Part shown: piece after piece, positions 6,882 to 63,678 of the stretch | How the letters are laid out: each line of letters starts with the position of its first letter | How positions within the stretch are numbered: position 1 is the stretch's first letter | Source: Escherichia coli | Lineage (GTDB): Bacteria > Pseudomonadota > Gammaproteobacteria > Enterobacterales > Enterobacteriaceae | DNA: 64,000 nucleotides | Assembly: GCF_044324875.1 (NCBI RefSeq) | Contig: NZ_CP172186.1 | Strand: one strand, 5' to 3' | Translations under genes and position numbers: made by a program | Notes under the pieces: generated by a model | Database searches by the model: none | Told to the model about the DNA's origin: nothing | What the model saw: only the letters and a program-made list of their open reading frames with translations

Positions 6882-9800
6882 ATGAGTGCACGTGGTATCA
6901 ACAAGGTCATCCTCGTCGGGGTGCGCCGTTGAAGCGCGGTGTTTTATGGAGTGTTGCCTGAAAAGCAACATGGCTTAGTGGTATAGCCATTGCATACTGT
7001 GGTTAGCCTTGCTTGGTAACAGGCTCGGAGATCCTGAAAAGGAGAGGTGAACATAGCATCCACAGAAAAGGGTGGTGAATATGGAAATCGTTATAAGTAT
7101 CACCATTCAATGCAAGATGTATATGGATAAACTGGGTTTGTTGAAGTCGAGATCTATGTGGGAAACAGGAAACCAATAACGCAGAACGATTGAAGCGTTA
7201 TTCCCGTACTAGCACAAGAAATCCGTCCGACGTTGATTGTGACCACTCTAACGGGCCAGCTATTGATGAAATAGTTAAACGATCGAAAGACATCCTAAGT
7301 ACATCGCATCTCCACACCGTGAAACTACGGGACTACCTAAACTGGATTTATACCCAGCATGGTAGCGGAGTCTCCATAGTACTCAAGGTCGGCCTGTAAT
7401 GGGTTCCGGCAGTCCGCATTATACGGAAGCAGCAAAGGTATAAATCAACCGGAAGGAAGATGAAAGCCTCACAGTGCTGCGGGGAAGGGAGACAGTTGTT
7501 AGATACATCAATCTCTAAGAGGAGGGTTAGCCAATGCTGCCTGATGAACTTGAGAAAAGATTAGATGGAATTGAGGATGCTTCAAAAAAAGGGTATCCAG
7601 TACGTAATCTATACAAAATTGCGTGTGAGCCCGGACTGTGGCTGCAAGCCTACGTGAATATACGGGCCAATGCAGGTGCACTGACTCAAGGTGTATCAAC
7701 AGATACCATTGATGGCTTTTCTATCGAAAGAGCAGAGAAGCTGGCAAAAACATTGCGGAGTAGAGAATACGTAGCGAAACCTGTACGCAGAGTTCAGATC
7801 CCAAAAAAGGACGGAAAAACCAGACCGCTGGGGATTCCAGGTGGAGACGATAAACTGGCGCAAGAAGTAGCAAGAATTATTCTGGAAAGGGTTTATGAAC
7901 CAGTATTCTCTGAACACTCTCATGGATTCAGACCAAAACGTTCGTGTGAAACTGCGCTCAGATCTATTCGTCCAGTCTGGAACGGAGTTAAATGGATCGT
8001 GGATGTTGATATCAAAGGTTTCTTTGACAATATCCCCCACAAACTATTGCTGAATACACTGGCAGAGAAAATTAAGGATAAGAATTTCCTGAAATTAATC
8101 GAACAGTGGCTGAAGGCAGGATATGTGGACAATTGGAAATACCATCGCTCATATTCTGGCACGCCACAAGGTGGGATAATTTCTCCCTTACTGGCAAATA
8201 TATACCTCGACAAACTGGACCGTTTTGTAGAACAGAATTTAATTCCTGCATATACAAGCGGTACAAAACGAAGAGCGAATCCAGATATGAACAGGCTGGC
8301 CCATAAGATTCATAAACTACGAAAGAAAGTAGACGGTATGGCAACTGATTCTGAATCAGAAAAAGAAGCCATAAAGAAAGAAATTGAACGACTGCTTGAA
8401 GAAAAACGTTCTATACCATCTCAGGTCATGAACGATCCAAACTTCAGGCGTATGTACTATGTTCGATATGCTGATGACTTCGTAATCGGTGTCATCGGCT
8501 CGAAGAAAGATGCTGAACATATATCAAGACAGGTCAGAAACTTTATTACTACTTCACTGGGATTGGAAGTTAATGAAGCAAAGACCAGGATCCGCCATAT
8601 CTCAGAAGGAGTTAATTTTTTAGGCTATGAAATCAGACAGGCAGATGCAAAGAAATTGCTGAAGCAGAAAATGCAAGGGCGGCACGCTCTCCGGAGATCC
8701 ACCACAGGAATTGTGCAGCTCTTCGTTCCTGACAATATAGCCGCTAAATTTTGTCACCAAAAGAAATATGGCTGTTATGAGAATGTGAAGGCTGTACATC
8801 GTTCAAGTCTACAAAATCTCAGTGAAGCTGAAATTGTTCTGACTTTCAACGCGGAAATGCGCGGATTGGCGAACTACTACAGTCTGGCGCTGGACATGAA
8901 ATATAAATTATCAAAATTATATTTCATATGGCAAATAAGCCTTTTTAAGACCCTGGCGAATAAACGACGTAGTTCAGTGAATAAAGTCGCCAAATCGCTA
9001 CGGCAAAATAATGGAGATCTGGCTATTACCGTTCAGGCCAAAAATGGATCCCGAAAGATTGAGGTTTTCAAACTCAAACATGTCAATCGCAACCGAACAA
9101 CGATTGTCGATACGGAACCGAGAACCGCACATATCACAACCCGCACAACAGAGATCATGCGTCGATTAGGGGCAAGGATCTGCGAGTATTGTGCGAAGAC
9201 TGGGCGCTGCGAAGTACATCATGTCAGAAAGCTAAAAGACCTGAAGAAAGGTCGTAAGGCCGGATATAAACCCAGCTTGTGGCAACTAATGATGATCGCA
9301 CGCCGCCGGAAAACGATGATTTTGTGCGCAAGTTGCCACGACAAGTTACATAGCGGAAAACTACCCGATTTGAGACAGGAAAAGGGAAGAATACTCCTGC
9401 AACCACCTGTCTCAAGCGGGGATTCTGCTAAATGAGTTTATCCCCAATAAGCTAGCAATGGAGAGCCGTATGCACTGAAAGGTGCACGTACGGTTCGGAG
9501 GGGGGGTAACGGTGATCTAACTCAAGATAAGCAGGACATATTCGCCATTTATCTTGAAAGACCACACGTACCCTACCCTACCGTCTGGGCAATGATCCGG
9601 AAGTCTGTTACATCCCCAACGGGGGCGCAGTGGCAAACCTGCAGGTCGCCACGTCAGAAAGCTGGCGCGACAAACAGACGGGGGAGATGCGGGAGCAGAC
9701 GGAATGGCACCGCGTGGTGCTGTTCGGCAAGCTCGCGGAAGTGGCTGGTGAATATCTGCGCAAGGGCGCGCAGGTCTACATCGAGGGGCAACTCCGTACC

Positions 9801-28935: not shown

Positions 28936-29073
28936 AATTCCTCCTGGTGACTTATCCGTGTTATGTCTTTAATCTGTATCCCCTTCGTTGCTATGCCTCC
29001 GGGATATCAGGTATTACCTTTCGAAGAATTTTATAAAAAACCACCTGTGCAGAGGGAAAGAGTGGATTTGCCC

Positions 29074-29979
29074 CTATATTTCCAGACATCTGTTATCACT
29101 TAACCCATTACAGGCCCGCTGCCGCAGATATTCCCGTGGCGAGCGATAACCCAACGCACTATGCGGATGCCATTCGTTATAATGCTCGAACGCCTCTGCA
29201 AGGTTCTTTGCTGCCGTTAACCCGTCTGGTTTGGGCATGACACTGATGTAGTCACGCTTTATCGTTTTCACGAAGCTCTCTGCTATGCCGTTACTCTCCG
29301 GACTCCGCACCGCCGTGTTCTTCGGTTCAAGCCCCAACATCCGGGCAAACTGCCGTGTTTCATTAGCCCGGTAGCATGAACCATTATCCGTCAGCCACTC
29401 TACTGGAGACGCCGGAAGCTCGTTGCCGAAGCGGCGTTCCACCGCTCCCAGCATGACGTCCTGTACTGTTTCACTGTTGAAGCCGCCCGTAGTGACCGCC
29501 CAGTGCAGTGCCTCACGGTCACAGCAGTCCAGCGCGAACGTGACTCGCAGTTTTTCTCCGTTATCACAGCGGAACTCGAACCCGTCAGAGCACCATCGCT
29601 GATTACTTTCTTTCACAGCCACTCTGCCGGTATGTGCCCGTTTCGATGGCGGTACAGCGGTTTTTCGCTCAAGCAACAGCGCATTCTGGCGCATGATCCG
29701 GTAAATACGTTTGGCATTGATCGCAGGCATACCATCAAGTTCTGTTTGTCTGCGAAGCAGCGCCCATACCCGACGATAACCATATGTGGGTAGCTCTCCG
29801 ATAACATGGTGTATACGGCGAAGCACATCCGTATCATCCGTGTGACGGCTGCGGCGGCCGTCCTTCCAGTCATCGGCTCGTCTGAGAATGACGTGCAACT
29901 GCGCACGCGACACCCGGAGACAACGGCTGACGAAGCTTACTCCCCATCCCCGGGCAATAAGGGCGCGTGCGCTATCCAC
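29074..29979 (-). CDS. insD: IS2 InsD (OrfB transposase)
   Basis: 301 aa DDE transposase ...[26 protein letters not shown]... Confidence 0.9.
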
Positions 29980-30347
29980 TTTTTTGCTCGCCCATATTCA
30001 ACGGCTTCTTTAAGGAGTTCATTTTCCATCGTTTTTTTGCCGAGCAGACGCTGGAGTTCTTTAATCTGCTTCATGGCGGCAGCAAGTTCAGAGGCAGGAA
30101 CGATCTGTTCTCCGGCAGCCACAGCAGTAAGACTTCCCTCCTGGTATTGCTTACGCCAGAGAAATAGCTGGCTGGCTGCCACACCATGTTGCCGGGCAAC
30201 AAGGGAGACCGTCATTCCCGGTTCAAAGCTCTGCTGAACGATAGCGATCTTTTCCTGTGTAGTACGCCGTCTGCGTTTCTCCGGCCCTAAGACATCAATC
30301 ATCTGTTCTCCAATGACTAGTCTAAAAACTAGTATTAAGACTATCAC
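29937..30347 (-). CDS. insC: IS2 InsC (OrfA)
   Basis: [53 protein letters not shown]... Confidence 0.9.
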
Positions 30348-30394
30348 TTATTTAAGTGATATTGGTTGTCTGGAGATTCAGGGGGCCAGTCTAA

Positions 30395-33163: not shown

Positions 33164-33193
33164 GTAAGCGACTCGTCAGAACCGTATTGATAT

Positions 33194-34765
33194 TTACTGA
33201 GAGCTCAGATCAACTTTCCAGGGCAACAGATCGCGTACCCGGTTTGCCGGCCAGTCCTGGATATGTTCAATGACGTAACGCAGCCACTTTTCTGGCTCCA
33301 CATTGTTCAGACGGCATGTGCCGATCAGCGAGTACAACACCGCCGCATGTTCACCACCGCTGTCGGAACCCGCGAACATCCAGTTTTTCCGGCCTACGGC
33401 CACTCCCCGTAAGGCGTTCTCTGCGATGTTGTTGTCGATTTCCACCCAGCCATTACTGCAGTACACGTTCAGTGCATCCCACTGTTTCAGCAGGTATGCG
33501 AACGCTTTTGCCGTATCTGAGTGACGCGACAGTGTTTTCATCTGTTGCTGTATCCAGTCATACAGTGACTGCATCAGTGGCGCGGCTCTGGCTTTTCTTG
33601 CCGCCAGACGCTGTTCTGCTGAACAGCCCCGGACCTCTGCCTCGATGGCATACAGTTCACCGATACGCTGCAGGGCTTCCGTGGTGATGTAGGTGGGCGC
33701 TCTTGCATGCACATCGTGGATTTTTCTCCGGGCATGAGCCATACACGCGGCTTCCGTTATTCTGCCGGATTCGTATAACGCCCGGTAACCACCGTAAGCA
33801 TCGGCCTGAAGCACACCGCTGTAACCGGCCAGGTGATTTTGTGGATGGATACCTTTCCGGTCCGGACTGTACGCGAACCAGACCGCCGGGGGCATCTGTG
33901 AACCGGCGTTACGGTCATCACGGACGTAGACCCACAGCCGGGCTGTCCGGGTTTTACCGCTGCCCGGCTCCTGGACCGGGACGGGGATATCATCAGCATG
34001 GACTTTACCGGGCATCAGCACATACTGGCGCAGGACGTCATACAGCGGCTCCAGCAGTTCAGCAACAGCACCTGTCCAGCGCCCCAGTGTGGCACGGCTC
34101 AGCTCCACTCCCTGACGACGGTATATTTCTGACTGGCGGTATAACGGCAGATGGTCTGCATATTTCCCGGTGACAACATGGGCCAGAAGCCCCGCTCCGG
34201 CATAACTGCGTGCAATGGGTTTTGAAGGTACTGGTGCCTGCACGATATGGTCGCACCGGCAACAGGCCTGTTTCGGACGTTGTGTTTCGATAACCTTAAA
34301 GGCGCTGCTGATAAGCTCCAGTTGCTCTGACACATCACATCCCAGAGAACTGAGTTCACCACCACAGGCAGGACAGCATTCCTCTTCCGGCCGGATAACC
34401 CGGGTTTCACGGGGAAGTGAGGCCGGTAACGGTTTACGGGCTGAAGACTGGCGCAGGGCGGATGGCAGTACCGGGTCATATTGCTCACCCAGCGTTTCCG
34501 CCATTTCTTCCTGAAGTGCGCTGATTCGCTCCTGTGCTTCCTGTATCTGCCGTTCGGTTTTTGCACGAAGTTTTTCTGAGCTTTTACCGAACTGCATACG
34601 TTGCAGTTTCGCAACCAGCGCCTTCAGCCGGTTGATTTCGGAAGCATAAGCCGCCACCCGCTGTGAGAGCAGGCGGTTGTATTCAGCCATCTGGCGGATG
34701 GTGTCCTGTTGCGTCTGCAACAGTGCCCGCAGGCGGGCGTTCTCATGAGCAAGTGAGGTGTCCAT
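33194..34765 (-). CDS. IS66-family transposase (TnpC)
   Basis: 523 aa with leucine-zipper N-terminus and CPACGG zinc motif, typical IS66 TnpC. Confidence 0.85.
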
Positions 34766-34784
34766 ATCCTCACTTTACAACGGG

Positions 34785-35132
34785 TTATATGCGGATTCCA
34801 GCGCGTTCCGTTCGTTTCGGGTGCTTCCAGTTGATACCTTCAAGAAGCATGGATAACTGAGCCGGAGTAAGGTGCACCTTGCCGTCACGGGTGACTGGCC
34901 AGACGAAGCGGCCCCGCTCCAGGCGTTTGGTGAAGAGGCACAGTCCGTCACTGTCAGCCCACAACACTTTTATCTGGTCACCCCGGCGTCCGCGGAAGAT
35001 GAACAGGTGTCCGGAGAACGGGTCATCCTTCAGGACGTTCTGAACTTTTGATGCCAGGCCGTTAAAGCCATTTCGCATATCGGTGATACCTGCAACCAGC
35101 CAGATACGCGAACCTGCAGGGAGAGATATCAT
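34785..35132 (-). CDS. IS66-family TnpB (orf2)
   Basis: 115 aa MISLPAGSRIWLVAGITDMRNGFNGLA... Confidence 0.85.
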   Translation of the reverse strand: MISLPAGSRIWLVAGITDMRNGFNGLASKVQNVLKDDPFSGHLFIFRGRRGDQIKVLWADSDGLCLFTKRLERGRFVWPVTRDGKVHLTPAQLSMLLEGINWKHPKRTERAGIRI

Positions 35133-35809
35133 CAGTGGCTGCTCCCTTTTATTTCGCGGATAAGTGTCTGTAATAACGCCGGCGTCAGTTTACCTTTAAG
35201 CCTGAGAGTTCCGGCCGGCAGAACCAGCTCACAACACAGACTGTCGGACGGTGTATTTATCTGCTCTGGTTCCTGTGCGGGGGCCGGGATTTTATTATCC
35301 GGCTCCGGCGTTAACGTCACGGGAAGCAGTGCCGGCATATTTTTTCCGGAAGGCAGCAGGCCACCTTTCCGGTATTGATGGCGCCAGTTGAAGAGCAGGT
35401 TATCGTTGATTCCGTTTTCCCGGGCGATCTGCGCCACACAGGCTCCGGGCTGCAGTGACTGCTCCACTAAGGCGATTTTAAACTCATAAGGGAAGTTGGG
35501 CCGCCGGGGACGTTTTTTTACCACGGGGGCTTCGGATATAACGGTGCTTTCAGGACGTACGACTGGTACCGTGGAAAATTGTCCGTAAAGGCAGGCATCA
35601 AGTTCCTGCTCCGACATGCCTGCGGGCAAAGGCCACGAAAGGCCAGCTCTCCGAAAGCGCACGAACATACTACAAACTGTTGATTTTGGTACACCCAGGC
35701 GACGCCCGGCCACAACCCGGGGTAAATGTTCTTCAAAGTGAAGACGTAAAGCTTCAGTGATCCAGGTCCGGTGTTTCATACGATAGTGTCCATTAAAAAT
35801 GATGGACAT
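35132..35809 (-). CDS. IS66-family orf1 (TnpA-like HTH protein); start uncertain
   Basis: First ORF of the three-gene IS66 arrangement. Confidence 0.7.
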   Translation of the reverse strand: MSIIFNGHYRMKHRTWITEALRLHFEEHLPRVVAGRRLGVPKSTVCSMFVRFRRAGLSWPLPAGMSEQELDACLYGQFSTVPVVRPESTVISEAPVVKKRPRRPNFPYEFKIALVEQSLQPGACVAQIARENGINDNLLFNWRHQYRKGGLLPSGKNMPALLPVTLTPEPDNKIPAPAQEPEQINTPSDSLCCELVLPAGTLRLKGKLTPALLQTLIREIKGSSH

Positions 35810-35855
35810 TATTTTTGTAGAGCCGGAGGAAACAGACCAGACGGTTTAAATGAGC

Positions 35856-36042
35856 CGGTTACTTCCCGACAGACGACTCGGTGAAAAAAGTGGTGTGGCT
35901 GGCAATCCAGTCTGCGTCCCGGAAATGGACGATGCCGTTGAAGGACTGGCGAATGGCAATGAGCCGCTTTATTATCGAGTTCGGTGACCGCCTGGACGGT
36001 CACTTCTGAGAAAGGCATTTACACAGAATCTTAAACAGGCTC
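35856..36042 (+). mobile_element. IS256-family element, second right-end fragment (inverted relative to 26601..26854)
   Basis: Reverse complement of 26601..~26785 including transposase 3' end. Confidence 0.7.
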
Positions 36043-40982: not shown

Positions 40983-41438
40983 GGGGATTCCTCCATAGAT
41001 GAATGGATAAATTTCGGGATTAAGTCGGGTGGCATGAATGCGAATCAGCGCCGGTAATAACCGGACAGGAATGAATTCAACAGGACATTTTTACAGAGAA
41101 GAGCGAACGGCAGAAGGTGGTGGGAGACAGGTACAAAAAAACCGACTGGTGAGGCCGGTTTTTTTGCGATTCCGGGGTGGAGTTGGTGGCTCTGACCGGA
41201 GGAAGTCTCTTTTCAGCTAACAATGAGAGAGCTGTTGTGACAGGCAATGTAAGAGTAAGCAGCAGTGATTTCCTCCATTGACGGAGAAACGGATGATTAA
41301 CCTGTTAATCATCGTTCTCAGGGCGGTTGTTGCTGTGGCTAACGCAGTGATAGCTCTCCGGGAACTGGTTGACTGATAATCCCGGAAACGTACTTAAGGG
41401 CAGAGGGTCACCTCCTTCTGCCCTTTAACAAAATATGC

Positions 41439-41615: not shown

Positions 41616-41785
41616 TTTTACACCTTTCTGTTATTCTGCTTATTACGACCAGCAGACAGCAAATATTAAAAATAACGCGGCGGTAATGCGTATTCCGCTC
41701 TATTCGATCACGGATTGGCATCGAAGTCCGATCAGCGATTCGCATCCATTCGATCAACCGGGAACTTAACTTTTTCTACCGCTTT

Positions 41786-42541
41786 TTAACGCGTTTTTTC
41801 GCTGCTTTCCACTACCGGGGGATTTTTCCTCAGTGACTCTCCCTGAAGGACCACTCGGTGTGAGTTATGTACCAGTCTGTCCAGGATGGCATCTGCTGTT
41901 GTTGGGTTCTCCATCAGACCATGCCATTTATCTACCGGGAACTGGCTTACCACTATCGTGCTGCTTTGTCCGTAACGATCCTCTATGAGCTCCAGAAGGT
42001 CATTACACTGGGCGTTACTTAACTGTTCCAGCCCCAGATCGTCCAGGATTAGAACCTGTATTTTTTGCAACTGTTTCAGATATTTCAGCCAGCTGCCATC
42101 AACACGTCCCTGAGCCAGTTGTTCCAGTAATCGCCCGGTTCTACAGTACCGGACGCTGTGTTTCTGTCGACATGCCTGTTCGCCCAGCGCATTGGCTATC
42201 CAGCTCTTGCCACATCCTGTCGGACCGGTTATCAGCAGGTTTTTCCTGTGGGTTATGTAGTGGCCGTTCAGCAGTTCTCTCATCTGTTCAGCCCGCAGAC
42301 CTCTTGAGGCCGGATAGCGCAGCCCTTCCGGTGTTGCCTGGTATTTCAGGCCGGCATTTTTTCTCAACCGTGCCACACGGCTGTTTTCCCTGCTCAGAAG
42401 CTCGTCATCAACCAGCAGCGTCAGCCTTTCCTCGAACGACAGTTCGTCGTAGGTCTGAGGCGTTTCCCGCTGCCGTATCAGGCTCCCGGCCATCGCCGGG
42501 AGTTTCAGTTGGGTCAGTTTGTTTAACAGGTTATCACTCAT
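41786..42541 (-). CDS. istB: IS21-family IstB (copy 2)
   Basis: Protein identical to copy 1 IstB. Confidence 0.9.
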   Translation of the reverse strand: MSDNLLNKLTQLKLPAMAGSLIRQRETPQTYDELSFEERLTLLVDDELLSRENSRVARLRKNAGLKYQATPEGLRYPASRGLRAEQMRELLNGHYITHRKNLLITGPTGCGKSWIANALGEQACRQKHSVRYCRTGRLLEQLAQGRVDGSWLKYLKQLQKIQVLILDDLGLEQLSNAQCNDLLELIEDRYGQSSTIVVSQFPVDKWHGLMENPTTADAILDRLVHNSHRVVLQGESLRKNPPVVESSEKTR

Positions 42542-42557
42542 ACTGTTGTTCCTTCTG

Positions 42558-44123
42558 TCAGTGGTAGTAGCCCGGACCACGCAGGTTTTCATGCTCTGAA
42601 GCATATGCCGGATGTTGTTCGCCCTGGCGGGATAATGGAAGCTCCAGGTTCTCCCGATGGTGACGCAGCAGATTGTCGATAAAGCGTCTGTCAGGGGCGT
42701 TATAGTGCAGGGCAACGTAACAGGCCTTTTCCAGCCGTTCCGGGCCGTATTTTTTCTGAAGTGCCAGCAGCCCCAGAACTGCACGATAAGCCAGTTCCGG
42801 ATGGGGTTTTGCCTTCAGCATGGATTCAACCACCCGGCCTGTGGACGGGCCCGTACGTTTTCCCTGCTCGATCAGGCGTTCCGGTGTCCATGTCCCGTGC
42901 TGCCGGTGGCGCTCTGGCATGTGAAGCGGATTGGTTGTGTGTTTATATTCATGTGTGCTGCGCGGATGTTGCGCCACACACTGCCCCTTGTGCCAGAGCT
43001 GTACCACCGACTGCCCCGCCTTCAGTGACAGACGCTGACCGACCAGTTCGTGTGGAACGGAGTACCAGTGACGGGCATATTCAACGTGGTAGTCAGGGCC
43101 AACCTTCACAGCTTTGTATTCCGTGTATTCATAAGGTGCCAGAGGCAGCGGAGAGAGTGCTGGCGCATCCAGTATGCGGAAGCGTTCTGCACGGGTTTGA
43201 TTGCCGTACCCCTTCATTGGCCGGTTATTCATGTCTGTCAGTAACTCCCTAAGGCGCGCATTCAGCGCCCTGAGCGTGTGGAAGGTTTCATTACGGATGC
43301 GGGCAAGAAGCCATCGTTCAACGATGAGGACGCCGTTTTCTGCTTTTGGTTTATCTTTAGGTTTGCGTGGTCGGGCCGGGATGATAACCGTGCCATAGTG
43401 CTCAGCCAGTGCCTGATAACTGTCGTTGATGACAGGCTCATATCGATCGGCCTTTTTCACTGCGCTTCTGAGGTTATCGGGGATGAGCAGCTTCGGTACG
43501 CCGCCCAGGAAGGTCAGGCAACGGCTGTGGGCATTTAACCATGACATCATGTCCTGACCTTCGCACGCTTCAACGTAGGTATAGTTGGACGCCCCCATTA
43601 CGGCCACGAAGATTGCCACGCGGCGTATCTCACCGGTGTCCGGATTAATAACAGGAACCGTAGGACCACAGAAGTCGATAAAAAGCTTTTCGCCGGCACG
43701 ATGCTCCTGGCGCATGGAGAGACGTCGCGTTTTTTTCCACTCCCGGTAGCAACGGCAGAAGTGCGAGTATCCCATCGCTTTGTTACCCGCCTGTGCCTTG
43801 TATTCCATCCACAACAGTTGCCGCGTCACACCTGGTTTTCTCATTTCCGTATCGAAGTACAACATGTCAGGCATTACAAGCTCTGATGCAAAGGTGTCTT
43901 TGGGCGGAAAAATGAGTTTCTCCAGCGTGTCATGGGATATATCAGCAGGTAATGGCCATGACAGAGAAGAGGCTTTGAAGCGGGCAAGAACCTCAAAAAC
44001 GGTTGAGGCGCTGATGTGTAACGTCAGTCCGATACAACGGTTAGTCAGCTTCTTGTCGAACTTGAGCTGAAGGATCTTAAAACAGGTTTCCATAGTGCTC
44101 CTGGATTTTCTCTTTCTGGACAT
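42558..44123 (-). CDS. istA: IS21-family IstA (copy 2)
   Basis: Protein identical to copy 1 IstA. Confidence 0.85.
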   Translation of the reverse strand: MSRKRKSRSTMETCFKILQLKFDKKLTNRCIGLTLHISASTVFEVLARFKASSLSWPLPADISHDTLEKLIFPPKDTFASELVMPDMLYFDTEMRKPGVTRQLLWMEYKAQAGNKAMGYSHFCRCYREWKKTRRLSMRQEHRAGEKLFIDFCGPTVPVINPDTGEIRRVAIFVAVMGASNYTYVEACEGQDMMSWLNAHSRCLTFLGGVPKLLIPDNLRSAVKKADRYEPVINDSYQALAEHYGTVIIPARPRKPKDKPKAENGVLIVERWLLARIRNETFHTLRALNARLRELLTDMNNRPMKGYGNQTRAERFRILDAPALSPLPLAPYEYTEYKAVKVGPDYHVEYARHWYSVPHELVGQRLSLKAGQSVVQLWHKGQCVAQHPRSTHEYKHTTNPLHMPERHRQHGTWTPERLIEQGKRTGPSTGRVVESMLKAKPHPELAYRAVLGLLALQKKYGPERLEKACYVALHYNAPDRRFIDNLLRHHRENLELPLSRQGEQHPAYASEHENLRGPGYYH

Positions 44124-44408
44124 TGACGTCTCCACTGGTTTAAACACGGCAATGGAGACTGTGGTGAAAAGAGTTAATTCCCGGAGTGACTGGCAGGATG
44201 CCAATCAATGATCGGAAGCATGCCAAATCGTGATCGATTGTGATGCCAAACTGTGATCGGAGATGGATGCCAAATCATGATCGATTCGAATGCCAAACTG
44301 CGATCGATTCAGATGCCATTTTGCAGGTAAAAATGGCAATTTTTTTCATGCTGTATTTTTGCCATTTATTTTCTTTGAAATGGTTTTTTTCTTCATATCA
44401 GCAAATAA

Positions 44409-46647: not shown

Positions 46648-46991
46648 CGGTGGGGTACAAACGCAGAAATTTTGTTGTCATTACATCATCAGTTTTAGCC
46701 TGCAGAGACGCTGAAAAATCAGCGTTTTCAGACCCTGTTCAGGTTAGTGAATATTCTTGCCTGGCCTTTCGGCAATATCAATCCCCTGATGTGTGCACAC
46801 GTAGTCACTTTCCGGCTTTATTTCTGTCCCTGACACAAAATACGTGGTGGCATGAAAAGGATTGTGGCGGACAGGAAAACGATTAGAATAGCGGCGGGCG
46901 CTTGAGGCTGTATGCCGAAAGCGTTTTGTGGACGGCATGTAGCAGAAAGCCCCAGGCGATTTTTTTATCAATCAACCCAGGGCCCACTGTA

Positions 46992-47195
46992 ATGCCTAGA
47001 CAACATTATAGTAGCCCGATGACGGCCGAAAGGCAATGGAGGGGCTGCGATGCCACAACGAACGTTTTTAATGATGTTAATCGTCGTCTGTGTGACGATA
47101 CTGTGTTTTGTCTGGATGGTGAGGGATTCGCTTTGCGGATTTCGTATCGAGCAGGGAAATACGGTGCTTGTGGCAACGTTAGCCTACGAAGTTAA
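46992..47195 (+). CDS. pndC: possible PndC (mok-like overlapping reading frame); start uncertain
   Basis: Alternate frame overlapping almost all of pndA, as in hok/mok-type loci. Confidence 0.35.
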   Translation: MPRQHYSSPMTAERQWRGCDATTNVFNDVNRRLCDDTVFCLDGEGFALRISYRAGKYGACGNVSLRS

Positions 47196-56203: not shown

Positions 56204-56526
56204 TCCGGTAAGGATGAATCATCACGGTCTGATATTTTTTGATGCCACAGCAGGGGATGTGGCATGAAAAAACAGCAGAGGAAATAAATAATCTGTTGAG
56301 GGACAGGTGCGTATTTCTGTGTGATTACAGTAAATAATAAAAATGTAATAAGGTGGAAACACGCTGTCAGCTTAGTGAATTTACAGGCGGATAAGTGATT
56401 TTATTAATATGTACAACAATAGATTTTCTTCTTTTATTTTGTATAAATACCGGTGGGACATAAAAGAAACGGAGACTGCAGAGACAGAGATGAAGGGGTT
56501 CTACGCCGGAACCGCCGAAATTTCCG

Positions 56527-56769
56527 TTACCCTAGTTTTAGGCCGGCGACCAACTCATCTAAATCAATAATTTCATTACTGTTTTGAAAGGTATAATGGC
56601 CGTTCAGTAAAATGTGTTGCCAGGCCACCGGTGATATCCGAGTTAGAGCATCAATGCCTTTAGTATTGCCTTCCGCTTCCAGTCGCTCTAGTAATCGTGA
56701 CAGGATCGCTGAGTTGTAGTAGATGATTGCATTGGAAATTAACCGACCACATTGGTTGCTGATTTCCAA
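56527..56769 (-). pseudogene. tnpA: Tn3-family transposase TnpA, C-terminal fragment ending inside the IR
   Basis: ...ISPVAWQHILLNGHYTF... typical Tn3-family TnpA C-terminus. Confidence 0.75.
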
Positions 56770-56842
56770 TGCAATGTCATTTTTTCCTGTTAATTCCTTC
56801 TTTCCACCTACTTTGGCTATTGCAGCACGTAACTGGTGGTAG

Positions 56843-57120
<278 letters not shown>

Positions 57121-57148
57121 TAAACTCCCTGAGAAAGAGGTAAACAGA

Positions 57149-57475
57149 ATGACTAAAAATACTCGTTTTTCCCCCGAAGTCCGTCAGAGGGCGATTCGTA
57201 TGGTTCTGGAAAGTCAGGGCGAATATGACTCACAGTGGGCGGCAATTTGTTCCATTGCCCCAAAGATTGGCTGTACACCGGAGACTCTGCGTGTCTGGGT
57301 ACGCCAGCATGAGCGGGATACCGGAGGCGGTGATGGCGGGCTCACCACCGCTGAACGTCAGCGTCTGAAAGAGCTGGAACGTGAAAATCGTGAACTGCGC
57401 CGCAGTAACGATATCCTTCGCCAGGCTTCCGCTTATTTTGCGAAGGCGGAGTTCGACCGCCTCTGGAAAAAGTGA
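57149..57475 (+). CDS. IS629 OrfA
   Basis: 108 aa [41 protein letters not shown]... Confidence 0.9.
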
Positions 57476-58362
57476 TGCCACTGCTGGATAAGCTGCGTAA
57501 GCTGTACGGGGTCGGACCGGTATGCAGTGAACTACATATTGCCCCGTCAACGTATTACCACTGTCAGCAACAGCGACATCATCCTGATAAACGCAGTGCC
57601 CGTGCGCAGCGCGATGACTGGCTGAAGAAAGAGATACTGCGCGTATACGATGGGAATCATCAGGTATACGGTGTGCGTAAAGTCTGGCGTCAGTTGTTAC
57701 GGGAAGGAATCAGGGTAGCCAGATGTACAGTGGCGCGCCTCATGGCGGTTATGGGACTTGCCGGTGTTCTCCGGGGTAAAAAGGTCCGCACTACCGTCAG
57801 CCGGAAAGCCGTTGCCGCAGGCGACCGCGTAAACCGTCAGTTTGTGGCAGAACGTCCTGACCAGTTGTGGGTGGCTGATTTTACTTACGTCAGCACATGG
57901 CAGGGGGTCGTCTATGTGGCGTTCATCATTGATGTGTTTGCCGGATACATCGTGGGGTGGCGGGTCTCATCGTCTATGGAAACGACATTCGTGCTGGATG
58001 CTCTGGAGCAGGCGTTATGGGCCCGTCGACCGTCCGGCACAGTCCATCACAGTGATAAAGGTTCTCAGTATGTATCGCTGGCCTACACACAGCGGCTTAA
58101 GGAAGCCGGATTACTGGCATCAACAGGAAGTACTGGTGACTCGTATGACAACGCGATGGCGGAGAGCATCAATGGCCTTTACAAAGCGGAGGTAATACAC
58201 CGTAAGAGCTGGAAAAACCGGACAGAAGTGGAGCTGGCCACACTCACGTGGGTGGACTGGTATAACAATCGACGATTGCTGGAAAGGCTGGGCCATATCC
58301 CACCGGCAGAAGCAGAAAAAGCTTATTATGCTTCCATCGGAAACGATGATCTGGCAGCCTGA
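57472..58362 (+). CDS. IS629 OrfB (DDE transposase)
   Basis: 296 aa; ...[13 protein letters not shown]...[10 protein letters not shown]...[15 protein letters not shown]... Confidence 0.9.
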
Positions 58363-58425
58363 GTTCACAGATAAAACACTCTCCAGGAAACCCGGGGCGG
58401 TTCAAAACGTCAGCCACATCACAAA

Positions 58426-60271
58426 ATGGTAGCTGTTCATAGAATCGCGTCTCTTTTGCCTTATTACGATTGACAACGGGTTTATGCCAAGTCAGCTTCT
58501 GCGTTTCTCTATCGTATATCACATGCTTCAACTTTCCCTGTTTTAGCTCGCGGTTGAATGCTTTCCATTGTCGATGCAGTTCAGACTCCAACTTCTTTAG
58601 TTGTGTTTTGATCGGCTTGTGCAAAAATGGGATATTCATTTCAGCCAGCACCGTCGCCTTTTTTCCTTCTGGTACCAGTTCATCAGAAAGATGACGATGA
58701 CGGAGACTGTTATTGAGGTGGAATTCACCTGCCTGAAAGCGTTTTCTAATCTGTCGGTAGAGCCAGAACTCATAGCGCCCAGCATTCAGTCCAATGACTT
58801 CGCCACTCTCATCAAACTCTAGCAAATACGGGCGTAATCGTTTGGGTAATGTTCCCTTTGGGCATTCTGTTAGTGGTCGCTGCGAAAGCGTCTGCTTTTT
58901 ACTGAATACCACCTTAAGCCAGTTCATGGCTTTTACCCACGGACTATCGCTGACTACACTGTTGAGGTCGAGCGACAGAAATAATGGTCGAAGGTGACGC
59001 CGGATTAATCCGGTCATACCATCGACAGCTTGCCACTGTAATGCCAGTTTGCTGACGGGTTTTACGCTCATACGCTGAGCGGTGGTTTGCAGTGTCTCCC
59101 GTGGCATAATCTTCCACGCTCTACGGCGCACTTCGCCAAAGGTGGTAAAGTCTGAGACACTATCATCAACATAAAGAGACAGCAGTCGTCCGATCTTAGG
59201 CGTTTCACGCCGGTGTTTTTCTTGAACGTCAACCAGAAGCTGCTTAGCTACACGGCGACTCTCATCCTCGATCTTTTTCAAATGGAAAAACATGGCTTCC
59301 ACCAAGTTATCGCTGAACTGACGATAACGAACCCATGCATAACACAGCAGATAAAGACGCGCCTGCTCGGGTTTCAGTTGACGCAGATCGTAAACGGTAT
59401 AGAAATTTGCCAGACTCGCGTAGTACAACAGGTTTTGCTGAGAAATATTCAGTGTAGGTAAAATATTGCAGGCTTTATGGTGCAGTGCTTCCAAAATGGT
59501 TCGTTTTTCCCTTTCTTGGGTCATCTGTCGCCATCCGAAGTCTCGGGCATCTTGCCTGAGAATGGCAAGGCGGGAAAGAGTTTCATCGCGTTCAATCAGC
59601 TTGTTCAAATGAGCAATAGTCGCGTCATCGAGTTGTTCCGTTAAAATATGTCCTAATCTTTGTCTTTCATTAGAAAGGACTTTGCTGACTAGCTCTTGAA
59701 GTGTGGTATAGCCGGGTCTGATAATTTTGTTCTCGTTGAGCCAGATAATTAGCTCTGTGGCAACAAATCCGGGAGTGATATCGCGGTGAACAATATGGAC
59801 AGCTTGTTGTTCAACCAATGAAGACAATGCTGAGGACCATGGACGATAATTATACAATTTGAATATTTTTTCTCGCTGAGCATAGCGTTCATATTTAGAG
59901 GGCGATTGAAGTGGAATTGACTCTCCAGGAAAATAACGACTCAGGATAAAGTTGCAGTCGTCCAAGACATCATGCCAATTGAAATGAAAAAACAGACTTT
60001 TAGCTTTAAAGTAAGCAATCTGCAGAATGCAACAAAGCTGCGCATGAAGCCCTTTTCGACTGTTGACTAACGCTAACTCCGATTCATCCAGAACCAAAAA
60101 CTCTAATTGTTGTGCATCATCGAAATCAGGGAGGCCATAGAGAGCTTCTTGTTCAGCATTACTTAATACCGCTAGTCGTTCACTTTTACCAGCGGCTTTA
60201 CCACCACTTACCATCTTGCCCCCCGAAATTAATGTCCGTAAGAGGATCGTTAAGCGGACAGTAATAACCAC
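58426..60271 (-). pseudogene. tnpA: Tn3-family TnpA, N-terminal portion (truncated by IS insertions)
   Basis: ~615 aa of TnpA-like sequence; the ORF-track protein 58244..60271 reads on into IS629. Confidence 0.7.
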
Positions 60272-60362
60272 TTTTATAATCCGCCTATTTATTAGGCTGA
60301 CGTTGTCTCATATAACTGGTACGATATCAATCTCTTTTATCCCCCCTTAAACGTACATTAAT

Positions 60363-60938
60363 ATGACTGGAATCAAGATTGGCTATGCTCGTTGCTCCAC
60401 AGACCAACAAGACCTAACTGCCCAGATAGATGCGCTGATAAATCTAGGCATTTCCACTGACAGGATCTATACAGACAAAGGACTGACTGGTTCAAACCGA
60501 CAGAGGCCGGGCCTAGAACAGGCGCTTGCAGCGGTTCGAGAGGGAGATACGCTAGTTGTTCCAAAACTAGATCGTTTAGCCCGTTCAGTACCTGATGCAA
60601 GAGGTATTGCTGATATCCTACAAGCTCGAGGAGCGAAACTCGCTCTAGGGGACAGTATCTATGATCCAACAGACCCGATGGGGAAAATGTTCTTCAATAT
60701 TCTTGCTACTTTTGCAGAGTTTGAAGGAGACCTTATTCGACTACGAACTAAAGAGGGGATGGCTGTTGCCCGTTCAAAGGGAAAATTGAAAGGAAAACAG
60801 CCTAAATTATCTGAAAAACAACAAAAAGAACTATGCCGTATGCGTGATACTGGCCAGTACTCTATCAGCGATCTAGCGGAACTATTTACCGTCTCGCGTG
60901 CAACGGTTTATCGAACACTTTCACGAGGACAAAAATGA
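60363..60938 (+). CDS. tnpR: Tn3-family resolvase (serine recombinase) TnpR
   Basis: 191 aa; MTGIKIGYARCSTDQQDLTAQ... catalytic Ser region, C-terminal HTH; divergent from tnpA with ~90-bp res-like spacer. Confidence 0.9.
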   Translation: MTGIKIGYARCSTDQQDLTAQIDALINLGISTDRIYTDKGLTGSNRQRPGLEQALAAVREGDTLVVPKLDRLARSVPDARGIADILQARGAKLALGDSIYDPTDPMGKMFFNILATFAEFEGDLIRLRTKEGMAVARSKGKLKGKQPKLSEKQQKELCRMRDTGQYSISDLAELFTVSRATVYRTLSRGQK

Positions 60939-61149
60939 CCGATTTAACTACACAGCAACATCTAGTAAAAATTGTCCATGATTATGCCTGCCCTCAAAAG
61001 GGTCATGGACAGTCCATCAAAGGTTCAAATGGATTACATCTGCATTCAATACCCAGATTACTTCCGCTTTGCTAAATGGATAGAACGGTTGGCGTAGGGT
61101 ATTGTTGATGGTGTAATTAAAGTTCCTAAAGATCATTAAAATATCAGAT

Positions 61150-61188
61150 CGGAAATTTAGGCGGTTCCGGCGTAGAACCCAGAACCCC
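61150..61188. repeat. internal degenerate copy of the Tn3-family terminal IR
   Basis: CGGAAATTTAGGCGGTTCCGGCGTAGAACCCAGAACCCC: same orientation as the right IR, with one substitution and a 7-bp duplication. Confidence 0.65.
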
Positions 61189-61197
61189 TTATCCGAA

Positions 61198-62061
61198 TTA
61201 TTGTTCAGTTAACTTCATTTCGACAAGTAAAGGTAAATGATCTGAGACAGATGCATATGGCTTACTTTCAGGGGTCGCTCTATCTGACGGTTTAGGAATA
61301 TATACATCTTTAATGTCCCATTTTTGAGCATTTGATGTAAGTATATAATCAATTTTCCTGTCTGGATTCCATGATGGTGCCGTGTACTTCAATTCCTTAT
61401 CAGTGTCATTGAACCATGCTGTTAAATCCAAGTACTCTGTTGATTGAGGTGGTAAATTAAGATCACCCACTATAATTGGAAGTGCATTTTTAAACTGCCA
61501 AGAAGAGAATTTTGTTTGAAGAGTTCTTACTTGCTCTGCTCGTAATGGCTGCGTAGTGAAGTCCAAATGAGTAGTTACTAACATAACAGGCGCAGGATAA
61601 TTAGGGACATCAACTTCTACAGCACAGGCCGCTCTTTGCTCCGCACCTTTGATGTTAGGTAGTTCCATCCTTTTACTCAATTTCAAATCATACTTAGACA
61701 GTACTGCTGTACCATATTCCCCACCATCATGATCTATAGCCTTGCAGAAGTAATAATTCATTCCCAACTTATTAGCTATATACTCTGCTTGATTGACTGG
61801 GTTAGAACCCTCTTTACTAAAGTTCTTACCAGAACGCCTAGTCATGTTATCAACTTCTTGCAGTCCAATAATATCAACATTCATTTTACGAATTGCTTCT
61901 ACAATGGCATCAGTACTCCCCATTCTAGAGGCCATTATGTTATATGACCCAACACGAATACTATCGGTATCTGCTGGACCATCCATGAGGCGATCAGAAG
62001 CTAAAGTTGAAGAGGAAAGAACTATAAACCCTATAACCGCAGCAATGCTTGTTAATTTCAT
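61198..62061 (-). CDS. secreted endonuclease/exonuclease/phosphatase (EEP, DNase I-like fold) family protein
   Basis: 287 aa; signal peptide MKLTSIAAVIGFIVLSSSTLA; ...VGSYNIM...IIGLQEVD...TTHLD...VGDLN...SDHLPL... EEP motifs; visibly AT-rich gene. Confidence 0.7.
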   Translation of the reverse strand: MKLTSIAAVIGFIVLSSSTLASDRLMDGPADTDSIRVGSYNIMASRMGSTDAIVEAIRKMNVDIIGLQEVDNMTRRSGKNFSKEGSNPVNQAEYIANKLGMNYYFCKAIDHDGGEYGTAVLSKYDLKLSKRMELPNIKGAEQRAACAVEVDVPNYPAPVMLVTTHLDFTTQPLRAEQVRTLQTKFSSWQFKNALPIIVGDLNLPPQSTEYLDLTAWFNDTDKELKYTAPSWNPDRKIDYILTSNAQKWDIKDVYIPKPSDRATPESKPYASVSDHLPLLVEMKLTEQ

Positions 62062-62067
62062 TTGGAT

Positions 62068-62389
62068 TTGCCCCTATATTTCCAGATACCTGTTATCACT
62101 TAACCCATTACTGGCTTGCTGCCGTAGATATTCCCGTGGCGAGCGATAACCCAGTGCACTATGCGGATGCCATTCGTTATAATGCTCGAACGCCTCTGCA
62201 AGGTTCTTTGCTGCCGTTAACCCGTCTGGTTTGGGCATGACACTGATGTAGTCACGCTTTATCGTTTTCACGAAGCTCTCTGCTATGCCGTTACTCTCCG
62301 GACTCCGCACCGCCGTGCTCTTCGGTTCAAGCCCCAACATCCGGGCAAACTGCCGTGTTTCATTAGCCCGGTAGCATGAACCATTATCC
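62068..62389 (-). mobile_element. IS2 3'-end fragment
   Basis: IS2 right terminus TGGATTTGCCCCTATATTTCCAG and InsD C-terminal ~104 codons. Confidence 0.8.
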
Positions 62390-62936
62390 GTCATCCATAT
62401 CACCACGTCAAAGGGTGACAGCAGGCTCATAAGACGCCCCAGCGTCGCCATCGTGCGTTCACAGAATACGTGCGCAACAACCGTCTTCCGGAGCCTGTCA
62501 TACGCGTAAAACAGCCAGCGCTGGCGCGATTTAGCCCCGACATAGCCCCACTGTTCGTCCATTTCCGCGCAGACGATGACGTCACTGCCCGGCTGTATGC
62601 GCGAGGTTACCGACTGCGGCCTGAGTTTTTTAAGTGACGTAAAATCGTGTTGAGGCCAACGCCCATAATGCGGGCAGTTGCCCGGCATCCAACGCCATTC
62701 ATGGCCATATCAATGATTTTCTGGTGCGTACCGGGTTGAGAAGCGGTGTAAGTGAACTGCAGTTGCCATGTTTTACGGCAGTGAGAGCAGAGATAGCGCT
62801 GATGTCCGGCGGTGCTTTTGCCGTTACGCACCACCCCGTCAGTAGCTGAACAGGAGGGACAGCTGATAGAAACAGAAGCCACTGGAGCACCTCAAAAACA
62901 CCATCATACACTAAATCAGTAAGTTGGCAGCATCAC
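62390..62936 (-). mobile_element. IS1 5' fragment (insA plus start of insB) fused to the IS2 fragment
   Basis: InsA 62607..62882 [39 protein letters not shown]...; InsB N-terminus reads in frame into IS2 InsD; IS1 terminus ...GGCAGCATCACC. Confidence 0.8.
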
Positions 62937-63228
62937 CCGCGAATTATTAAATAAATACCATGGGCTCTCTCGTATTAGCCAAAAATTAAGGCAAAAAGGC
63001 TCGAGACCTTAGTAATAGAACAAGAGCTTGAAGATACCGATGTCAATTGGTTTGAGACGTGCCTTAAAGCAAAAGAAAAAAGTTTGGCAGCAGCTTCCCC
63101 CAAAATCAGAGTTAGAAAACAAAGATGATTCGTGACCTTCTATATTAAGGTCACTCGTTATCAATGATATTAGAGTGCATAAGCAAATAGAAAGAACATA
63201 CCAGTCAATTACTTATACTTTCTTTGAC

Positions 63229-63678
63229 TCAATGTCGGAAATTTCGGCGGTTCCGGCGTAGAACCCCATGAAGTTGTTTTCTCCGTTTCCTTAATGAAAA
63301 TTCAGCCAGAGGCGCAGCAGGATGATTATGTAGTGCACTTAATGCCCTGTTGAACTGAAGTATTCCGGCAATATCCATCCATGAGAGATATTTATCGACG
63401 CTCACTGTGACGGTGATGCAGTCATGGGTACGGGATTTTTCATGAATTTCTGCAGCCAGAAAGAGCAGCCAGCCGCCGTTAAATGCCGGGTGGCGGAGAA
63501 TGAACCGGGCAATCTCTTTTTCAACTCCATCAGGCGGAATATCGTCCGTCAGTGTCCGGATAATAAAGTGCCGGAATGCATCAGCGGTGAACTGATATGC
63601 GGCAGAGAGGGTATCCATTTTTGTTCCTCTGTAAGTTGAGAGGGCCGGCAGAACGTCACCGGCACCGGTGTGTGTCAC
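63229..63678 (-). CDS. hypothetical backbone protein whose 3' end is displaced by the Tn3-family insertion
   Basis: ORF reads from backbone across the IR outer boundary (63267) and terminates inside the IR. Confidence 0.4.
   Translation of the reverse strand: MTHTGAGDVLPALSTYRGTKMDTLSAAYQFTADAFRHFIIRTLTDDIPPDGVEKEIARFILRHPAFNGGWLLFLAAEIHEKSRTHDCITVTVSVDKYLSWMDIAGILQFNRALSALHNHPAAPLAEFSLRKRRKQLHGVLRRNRRNFRH

Follow-up and report, generated by a model that had tools for sequence, protein, structure and literature searches.

A probable IS1-IS2 deletion remnant with an in-frame InsB-InsD fusion in a decayed Tn3-family transposon of Escherichia coli

In the Escherichia coli DNA analysed here (a stretch of 64,000 nucleotides from contig NZ_CP172186.1, referred to throughout as the window), part of an IS1 runs directly into part of an IS2 and the transposase genes of the two insertion sequences (ISs) share one open reading frame (ORF) across the join. 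The locus raises the question of whether such a fusion is a product with a role of its own or what is left after a deletion. The reading favoured below, with a probability of about 0.85, is that the feature is an immobile deletion remnant of two adjacent ISs and that the fusion ORF is an incidental by-product.

Structure and limits of the chimera

References for both elements (IS1A and IS2A from E. coli K-12 MG1655) were aligned to the window with blastn. On the minus strand, 875 bp (62063-62937) consist of IS1 nt 1-552 welded to IS2 nt 997-1331, with both ISs in the same orientation. The IS1 part (window 62386-62937, IS1 nt 552 down to 1) is identical to K-12 IS1A at 548 of 552 positions (99.3%) and the IS2 part (window 62063-62397, IS2 nt 1331 down to 997) is identical to K-12 IS2A at 320 of 335 positions (95.5%). 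The earlier note, made from the sequence alone, had recognized an IS1-IS2 chimera at 62068-62936; the identification stands and the limits do not, being off by 5 and 1 nt at the two ends. The features of the chimera and its IS1 flank are as follows.

62063..62937, minus strand: the whole IS1::IS2 chimera, with the IS1 left end and the IS2 right end as its limits (blastn against IS1A and IS2A; comparator homology)
62394..62937, minus strand: IS1-only part (IS1 nt 1-544), containing the left terminal inverted repeat (IRL), insA, the A6C site and the 5' part of insB (99.3% to K-12 IS1A; positional alignment)
62386..62397, minus strand: junction, a 12-nt overlap between the two parents (blastn; positional alignment)
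62063..62385, minus strand: IS2-only part (IS2 nt 1009-1331), containing the 3' 103 codons of insD and the right terminus (blastn and positional alignment)
62915..62937, minus strand: IS1 left terminal inverted repeat, GGTGATGCTGCCAACTTACTGAT (blastn; sequence reading)
62903..62930, minus strand: promoter-like site in the IS1 left end, CTGCCA-16-TATGAT, matching at 9/12 positions, at the position of the weak insA promoter
62938..62946, no strand: sole surviving copy of the IS1 9-bp target-site duplication, CGCGAATTA (both copies flank an intact IS1 in Providencia p12100-PER)

Measured against a complete IS1 (both ends, a full InsAB' and both target duplications), the chimera keeps nt 1-552, with the left inverted repeat, the promoter region (in IS1 the weak insA promoter overlaps the IRL; PMC12428005), insA, A6C and the first 101 insB codons, but is without nt 553-768, which hold the last 66 insB codons (including the region of the IS1 catalytic Glu) and the right inverted repeat, and has a single copy of the duplication. 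The IS1 right end is absent, with nothing past IS1 nt 552 either here or elsewhere in the 64-kb window. From IS2, a member of the IS3 family, it retains nt 997-1331, which covers the right terminus and the final ~104 codons of insD/orfB, those for the NGIAES Glu and for the Lys that follows it among them, but not the left inverted repeat, insC/orfA, the frameshift region or the first 195-198 insD codons, and it falls short of a complete IS2 as well.

The alignment to IS1 and IS2 references that the earlier note had proposed places the breakpoint at IS1 nt 545-552 and IS2 nt 1001-1008, where the parents share an 8-nt perfect microhomology (TGACGGAT on the coding strand, window 62386-62393), and the junction is in frame. 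The match extends to 11 of 12 nt as TGG[A/C]TGACGGAT. The join has a short identical run and no transposon terminus, as a microhomology scar does, and both breakpoints are internal to their IS; neither transposase therefore made the join, and a transposase-made junction was rejected on this ground. These internal breakpoints, together with comparators in which an intact IS1 confirms the loss of sequence (see below), uphold the earlier description of the junction as a deletion or recombination scar.

The IS2 part is closer to plasmid IS2 variants (97-99% identity) than to the K-12 reference, and the 78-79 nt adjoining the junction are one base apart from common plasmid variants. It is an IS2 variant other than the full copy that the window carries at 29063-30393, with which it shares only 97.0% identity; on this ground that resident copy was ruled out as the origin of the fragment.

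Relatives, ancestral states and order of events

Among PLSDB plasmids and complete E. coli genomes, the contiguous junction occurs in one record, pLH50-c-A (NZ_CP100501.1), a complete IncK2/Z plasmid from Swiss poultry faeces, with which the window is collinear at ~99.9% identity and relative to which the window carries five extra mobile-element insertions. A third sighting lies on a 313-bp contig of a draft E. coli assembly (GCA_022409875.1; protein WP_275680075.1), and no match to the IS1/IS2 junction came out of a metagenome scan. Both IS1 and IS2 are multi-copy repeats, and several oddly duplicated IS proteins in public data resemble misassemblies, so that IS1 and IS2 reads misjoined at a shared short word have to be considered. 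The shared word, however, is merely 8 nt, far under assembler k-mer sizes, and the same junction recurs in three separate assemblies, which are told apart by SNPs and by insertions at other positions, on which basis an assembly artefact was rejected and its likelihood taken to be next to nil. The junction is real, rare (3 sightings) and inherited within one plasmid lineage; the chimera was seen in no other context and shows no sign of mobility.

The chimera lies within a decayed transposon, directly upstream of a passenger gene of the endonuclease/exonuclease/phosphatase (EEP) family.

56495..63267, no strand: decayed Tn3-family transposon carrying the chimera, with 32-bp terminal inverted repeats, a 5-bp target duplication (ATGAA) and tnpA in fragments
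60363-60938: tnpR of the Tn3-family transposon
61198..62061, minus strand: EEP gene (287 aa, with a signal peptide), downstream of the chimera

Earlier states of this site survive in other plasmids. Providencia rettgeri p12100-PER carries the EEP gene within an intact Tn3-family transposon (tnpA, tnpR, EEP) and has a complete IS1 at the exact IS1 position of the window, with both 9-bp copies of CGCGAATTA, 165 bp upstream of the EEP start; the same IS1, likewise intact, occupies the site in two E. coli plasmids (NZ_CP066840.1 and NZ_CP029742.1), and in a Vibrio tapetis plasmid the site is empty, without IS1. In every comparator, homology to the window ends exactly at 62063 and restarts at 62386. 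Compared with the ancestral arrangement that bears the IS1, the window is missing IS1 nt 553-768, the second target-duplication copy and the native 165 bp upstream of the EEP gene; what it has in addition is the terminal ~330 nt of an IS2.

The starting point of the proposed path, an IS1 with its 9-bp duplication located 165 bp upstream of the EEP passenger gene, is thus shown by plasmids in which it survives. An IS2 would then have inserted in the orientation of the IS1, 1-2 nt upstream of the EEP ATG, giving a predicted intermediate in which the left junction reads through the native spacer ...AACAAGGTGTAAAA(ATGA) into the IS2 left end TAGACTGGCCCC. A RecA-independent, microhomology-mediated deletion between the 8-nt direct repeats TGACGGAT, by replication slippage or end joining, would have followed, removing ~1.39 kb (IS1 nt 553-768, the 165-bp spacer and IS2 nt 1-1000). 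PLSDB, 5,426 complete E. coli genomes and JGI metagenome contigs yielded no example of the intermediate, in which an intact IS1, the spacer and an intact IS2 would stand together, and for this reason the order and number of steps are only inferred; likewise, no intact IS2 at the EEP start occurs in PLSDB or the complete E. coli genomes, and a metagenome scan for the IS2/EEP junction returned 0 matches. In this orientation IS1 and IS2 share 24 8-mers, including a 10-mer elsewhere, and the length of the microhomology alone does not account for the use of this site.

A second in-frame IS1-IS2 hybrid bears on the order of events. A search of representative proteins recovered a 147-aa protein present on 592 contigs, including complete E. 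coli chromosomes, that is named 'MULTISPECIES: IS1 family transposase' or 'integrase core domain-containing protein' in its records. Its DNA consists of IS1 nt 1-417, IS2 nt 1039-1331 and IS1 nt 703-768, with a 6-nt overlap, an arrangement that arose from an IS2 insertion inside IS1 followed by an internal deletion. The two chimeras have the same parents in the same relative orientation, a microhomology deletion and an in-frame InsB-InsD ORF behind an intact insA; they differ in that the chromosomal one breaks at IS1 nt 417 and IS2 nt 1039, is without the second Asp of the catalytic motif, keeps the IS1 right end, is chromosomal and is common, as opposed to the 3 sightings of the chimera studied here. 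IS1-IS2 scars of this type recur independently in E. coli, and literature searches found nothing specific on a published IS1-IS2 chimera.

The same final product could have arisen by another route, either with IS2 first entering the IS1 or the 165-bp spacer and two deletions following, or through illegitimate recombination that joined an IS1 on one replicon to an IS2 on another. The widespread chromosomal chimera, which has IS2 inside IS1 (nt 702/703) before its deletion, lends this some weight, and the event order is not fixed by any intermediate found. Such a route is nonetheless unlikely, as it needs more events than the two-step path, and the IS2 reaches the EEP start codon with exactly its terminal base, as would be the case for a true IS2 insertion there.

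Microhomology deletions that remove IS copies are known, as in the loss of ISApl1 from Tn6330/mcr-1, and immobilise the neighbouring gene, through replication slippage or IEE-assisted end joining (bioRxiv 10.1101/2023.06.07.543989). In ISApl1-type loss approximately one IS is removed between 2-4-bp repeats, whereas the present deletion took parts of two unrelated ISs and used 8 bp. What is left here should be unable to transpose by itself, because its two ends come from different elements (one from IS1, one from IS2) and it encodes neither the DNA-binding OrfA of IS2 nor a complete transposase. It can still make the InsA repressor.

The fusion reading frame and its catalytic motif

The coding features of the chimera and the positions of its candidate catalytic residues are listed below.

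62607..62882, minus strand: insA, intact, 91 aa, 100% identical to K-12 InsA (Pfam Zn_ribbon_InsA and HTH_Tnp_IS1)
62625..62631, minus strand: AAAAAAC (A6C), the -1 frameshift motif, intact (sequence reading; role of the motif from PMC12428005)
62074..62688, minus strand: in-frame fusion ORF of 204 aa, InsB aa 1-101 followed by InsD aa 199-301 (translation, Pfam, alignment)
62557-62559, minus strand: codon of D44, the first Asp, from the IS1 part
62386-62388, minus strand: codon of D101, the second Asp, at the junction
62278-62280, minus strand: codon of E137 (in NGIAES), from the IS2 part
62257-62259, minus strand: codon of K144 (E+7), from the IS2 part

The 204-aa ORF translates exactly as the earlier note had quoted, and its account of an InsB start that continues without a frameshift as the InsD C-terminus, behind an intact upstream insA, is borne out by Pfam, by blastn, by the identity of insA to its K-12 counterpart and by the in-frame junction. 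Across the join the frame is kept, reading ...DVVIWMTD and then NGSCYRANE.... Taken with their extension to 11 of 12, the 8 shared nt specify W-M-T-D in InsB and W-L-T-D in InsD in the identical reading frame, and since the repeat lies in the same frame in both transposases, any crossover within it yields an in-frame product. Pfam places DDE_Tnp_IS1 at aa 37-109 and rve_3 at aa 119-184 of the ORF, and the NCBIfam models all score below their cut-offs (transpos_IS1, 80.1 bits against a cut-off of 100; the IS2 TnpB model, 236.7 against 597; transpos_IS3, 88.1 against 160).

In IS1, InsB is normally produced only as InsAB', by -1 frameshifting at A6C (PMC12428005). With insB severed after codon 101 of 167, there is no full frame for the 232-aa InsAB' transposase. 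Given this normal mode of InsB production and the intact A6C at 62625-62631, the realistic product of the remnant would be a 269-aa InsA-InsB'-'InsD protein made by frameshifting. Automated annotation (PGAP) of pLH50-c-A treats the chimera as two incomplete pseudogenes, an 'integrase core domain-containing protein' with a missing N-terminus and an 'IS1 family transposase' with a missing C-terminus. Within the chimera the window differs from pLH50-c-A by 3 substitutions. One change, G76C, is private to the window copy (pLH50-c-A and the draft contig are without it) and affects a residue invariant in a 17-sequence InsB alignment, which is consistent with relaxed or absent constraint.

The codon at the junction specifies, in IS2, the second catalytic Asp (the middle residue of the IS3-family DD(35)E triad) and, in IS1 InsB, the invariant D101. 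Conservation in IS1 was judged in the same 17-sequence alignment, where W98 to P104 are invariant, and from the conservation of D101 (invariant) and D44 (at least 90%), together with the alignment of motifs, we infer that these two residues are catalytic in IS1. In the hybrid D44, D101 and E137 are colinear; 35 residues separate D101 from E137, and K144 follows at E+7, an IS3-like spacing. The earlier observation that only part of each DDE domain is retained holds for both parents, with the refinement that the parts are complementary (D44...D101...E137, with K144, in order). Moreover, Pfam rve (aa 49-130) and NCBIfam IS481 (aa 51-186) each cross the junction as a single colinear stretch, in a register that differs by at most a few residues from that of native InsD.

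Such an arrangement invites the reading that the 204-aa ORF, or more plausibly the 269-aa frameshift product, is a working hybrid protein, either a nuclease or a dominant-negative regulator of IS1. It would consist of a chimeric RNase-H-like core, with an N-terminal half from IS1 that brings the first Asp and a C-terminal half from IS2 that brings the Glu and Lys, set on the IS1 zinc-finger/HTH domain. The join at the second catalytic Asp of both parents, the D(35)E and E+7 Lys spacing and the colinear rve and IS481 matches, with their register near that of native InsD, all suit this reading, as do the intact insA, A6C site and IS1 left-end binding site. The two cores, however, have no similarity detectable by BLASTP or hhalign outside a stretch of 17-18 residues around the second Asp; the best local alignment of InsB and InsD is this stretch itself (BLASTP, InsB 92-108 against InsD 189-205, E 0.26, not significant), and hhalign returns the same stretch at a probability of 0.14%, again not significant. 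The segment from Asp to Glu is ~24 aa in IS1, as read from its sequence, as opposed to 35 aa in IS2. An AlphaFold2 model of the 204-aa ORF, built from a 101-sequence alignment, was poor (pLDDT 50, pTM 0.31), with the lowest values at the junction and the expected fifth strand, and is not decisive, since a control with native InsB and a shallow alignment was equally poor (pLDDT 40) and the models are uninformative. Also against a working hybrid are G76C, at an otherwise invariant position, and the common chromosomal chimera, which shows by its missing second Asp that preserved triads are no general pattern. On balance a functional hybrid protein is very improbable, and an incidental ORF within a deletion remnant is the preferred reading of the frame.

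Consequences for the EEP gene

In the remnant, IS-derived sequence has taken the place of the EEP gene's own promoter and ribosome-binding site. The native 165-bp upstream region was deleted, including a promoter-like TTATCA-16-TATGAT and an AAGGTG Shine-Dalgarno sequence, and the EEP ATG now lies 1-2 nt from the IS2 right end and 12 nt past the TAG of the fusion ORF, with an IS2-derived TAGGGG upstream. The coding sequence is intact; it matches that of pLH50-c-A at 100% identity and the copies on other E. coli and Providencia plasmids at 99.5-99.9%. The gene is carried by 31 PLSDB plasmids, most of which come from poultry E. coli, and the EEP protein had no match in a PDB sequence search.

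62383..62411, minus strand: junction-made promoter-like site, TTGACG-17-GATAAT, matching at 10/12 positions and pointing to the EEP gene (consensus match, in silico)

The -35 of this site (TTGACG) comes from IS1, and its -10 takes GAT from the shared bases and AAT from IS2. It is the best promoter-like match on that strand and is absent from both parent ISs. Sites matching at 10/12 positions or better occur in 3.7% of shuffles of the 875 bp and number 8 in the whole 64-kb window; the total of promoter-like sites in the region (7) is not above that in shuffles (5.0 +/- 2.5). No terminator-like site was found between the junction and the EEP gene. Classical IS hybrid promoters pair an IS terminus with host DNA. 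The putative site at the junction resembles IS-generated hybrid promoters in that its -35 and -10 come from different sequences joined by a mobile-element rearrangement upstream of a gene, but differs in that both halves derive from internal IS coding sequence.

The junction-made site leaves room for selection and counts against a purely incidental deletion. The deletion might have been kept since it rewired EEP expression; IS2 would have separated the gene from its own promoter and Shine-Dalgarno sequence, a sigma-70-like promoter at the junction would lie ~320 bp upstream, and an open frame reaching to 12 nt before the ATG would let transcripts read through free of premature-stop polarity and permit translational re-initiation at the IS2-derived AGGGG. 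A 10/12 site exclusive to the chimera and equalled in so few shuffles would fit, as would the loss of both native control elements, the intact coding sequence, the TAG-12 nt-ATG spacing with TAGGGG upstream and the lack of a terminator-like site. On the other side, the site is a consensus match only, spotted post hoc in a region whose total is not above shuffles; the lineage is rare (3 sightings), with no sign of spread under selection; and an in-frame outcome has a 1-in-3 chance in any case and is automatic for this repeat. Retention through rewiring is accordingly judged quite unlikely. The broader version, in which the deletion would be non-neutral because a strong hybrid promoter and the open frame re-activate the severed EEP passenger gene and the D-D-E hybrid might also fold, is distinctly doubtful.

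With the locus read as a deletion remnant, the join within the Asp motif and the promoter-like site at the junction are probably minor curiosities, unlikely to be important. The remnant is already public as pseudogene fragments in the pLH50-c-A record and represents ordinary decay of mobile DNA; its exact breakpoints and the surviving ancestral states show two unrelated ISs decaying to one immobile remnant, a result of little wider importance. With the remnant in place, a passenger gene of the EEP family is fixed downstream of control sequences derived from ISs, and the rare junction is usable as a lineage marker for the IncK2/Z poultry plasmid family. In-frame hybrids of this kind are split by annotation pipelines into two pseudogene fragments, and, as in-frame IS1-IS2 chimeras recur, hybrid "IS1 family transposase" proteins in databases are best read as scars.

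Decayed transposon and its passenger gene

The gene directly downstream of the IS1-IS2 chimera belongs to a degraded transposon, with the following features in the window:

56495-63267, decayed Tn3-family transposon
61198-62061, minus strand, passenger gene of this transposon, 287-aa product

The transposon has terminal inverted repeats of 32 bp, is bounded by a 5-bp target duplication (ATGAA; 56490-56494 and 63268-63272) and is inserted within the plasmid's IncI-type transfer region. An intact copy, with a tnpA of 3048 bp, is carried by the Providencia rettgeri plasmid p12100-PER. The passenger protein combines a signal-peptide-like segment at the N-terminus with an Exo_endo_phos domain and is weakly similar to models of exonuclease III and of extracellular nucleases; a PDB sequence search with the 287-aa protein found no relative. 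The gene is present in 31 plasmids, chiefly of poultry E. coli and frequently flanked by two IS1 copies, and is also carried by Vibrio tapetis.

IS2 copies and a second chimera

29063-30393, minus strand, full-length IS2, 96.2% identical to the E. coli K-12 copy IS2A

The resident IS2 was rejected as the source of the IS2 part of the chimera because the two are only 97.0% identical. A different in-frame IS1-IS2 chimera occurs on 592 contigs, including the E. coli chromosome CP126602.1 (locus L012, 2752-3521), and is composed of IS1 1-417, IS2 1039-1331 and IS1 703-768, with an ORF of 147 aa. In all six loci read (L012 and five similar), it lies at one identical site, immediately upstream of a Porin_8/GH32 gene pair; the genes flanking the opposite side differ in two of the six.

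Insertions relative to pLH50-c-A

6921-9581, group II intron
7534-9435, reverse transcriptase/maturase/HNH ORF of the intron, 633 aa
12870-15508 and 41687-44325, two IS21-family elements, 2639 bp each
33194-34765, minus strand, 523-aa ORF
57095-58404, IS629/IS1203-like IS3-family element, 1310 bp

The poultry plasmid pLH50-c-A lacks the group II intron, which includes an Rfam Intron_gpII match (9461-9581), although it is otherwise ~99.9% identical. Relative to this plasmid, the window has an additional insertion of ~2.7 kb (33164-35862) that contains the 523-aa ORF. The IS629/IS1203-like element, missing from the corresponding site of pLH50-c-A, possesses two ORFs (108 aa and 296 aa) and an ALIL pseudoknot (57430-57546), is flanked by a 4-bp target duplication (AAAC), and lies within the Tn3-family transposon's tnpA, which was already in fragments. 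Rfam matches to sok antitoxin RNA (46896-47052), part of hok/sok plasmid addiction, and AgrB antisense RNA (41133-41220) are ordinary features of the plasmid backbone.

The IS21-family elements, each encoding an IstA-like protein (548 aa) and IstB (332 aa), are 100% identical to each other and inverted in relative orientation. Since neither copy is found in pLH50-c-A, both look like recent insertions. The pair could bring about inversion of the intervening ~26 kb.
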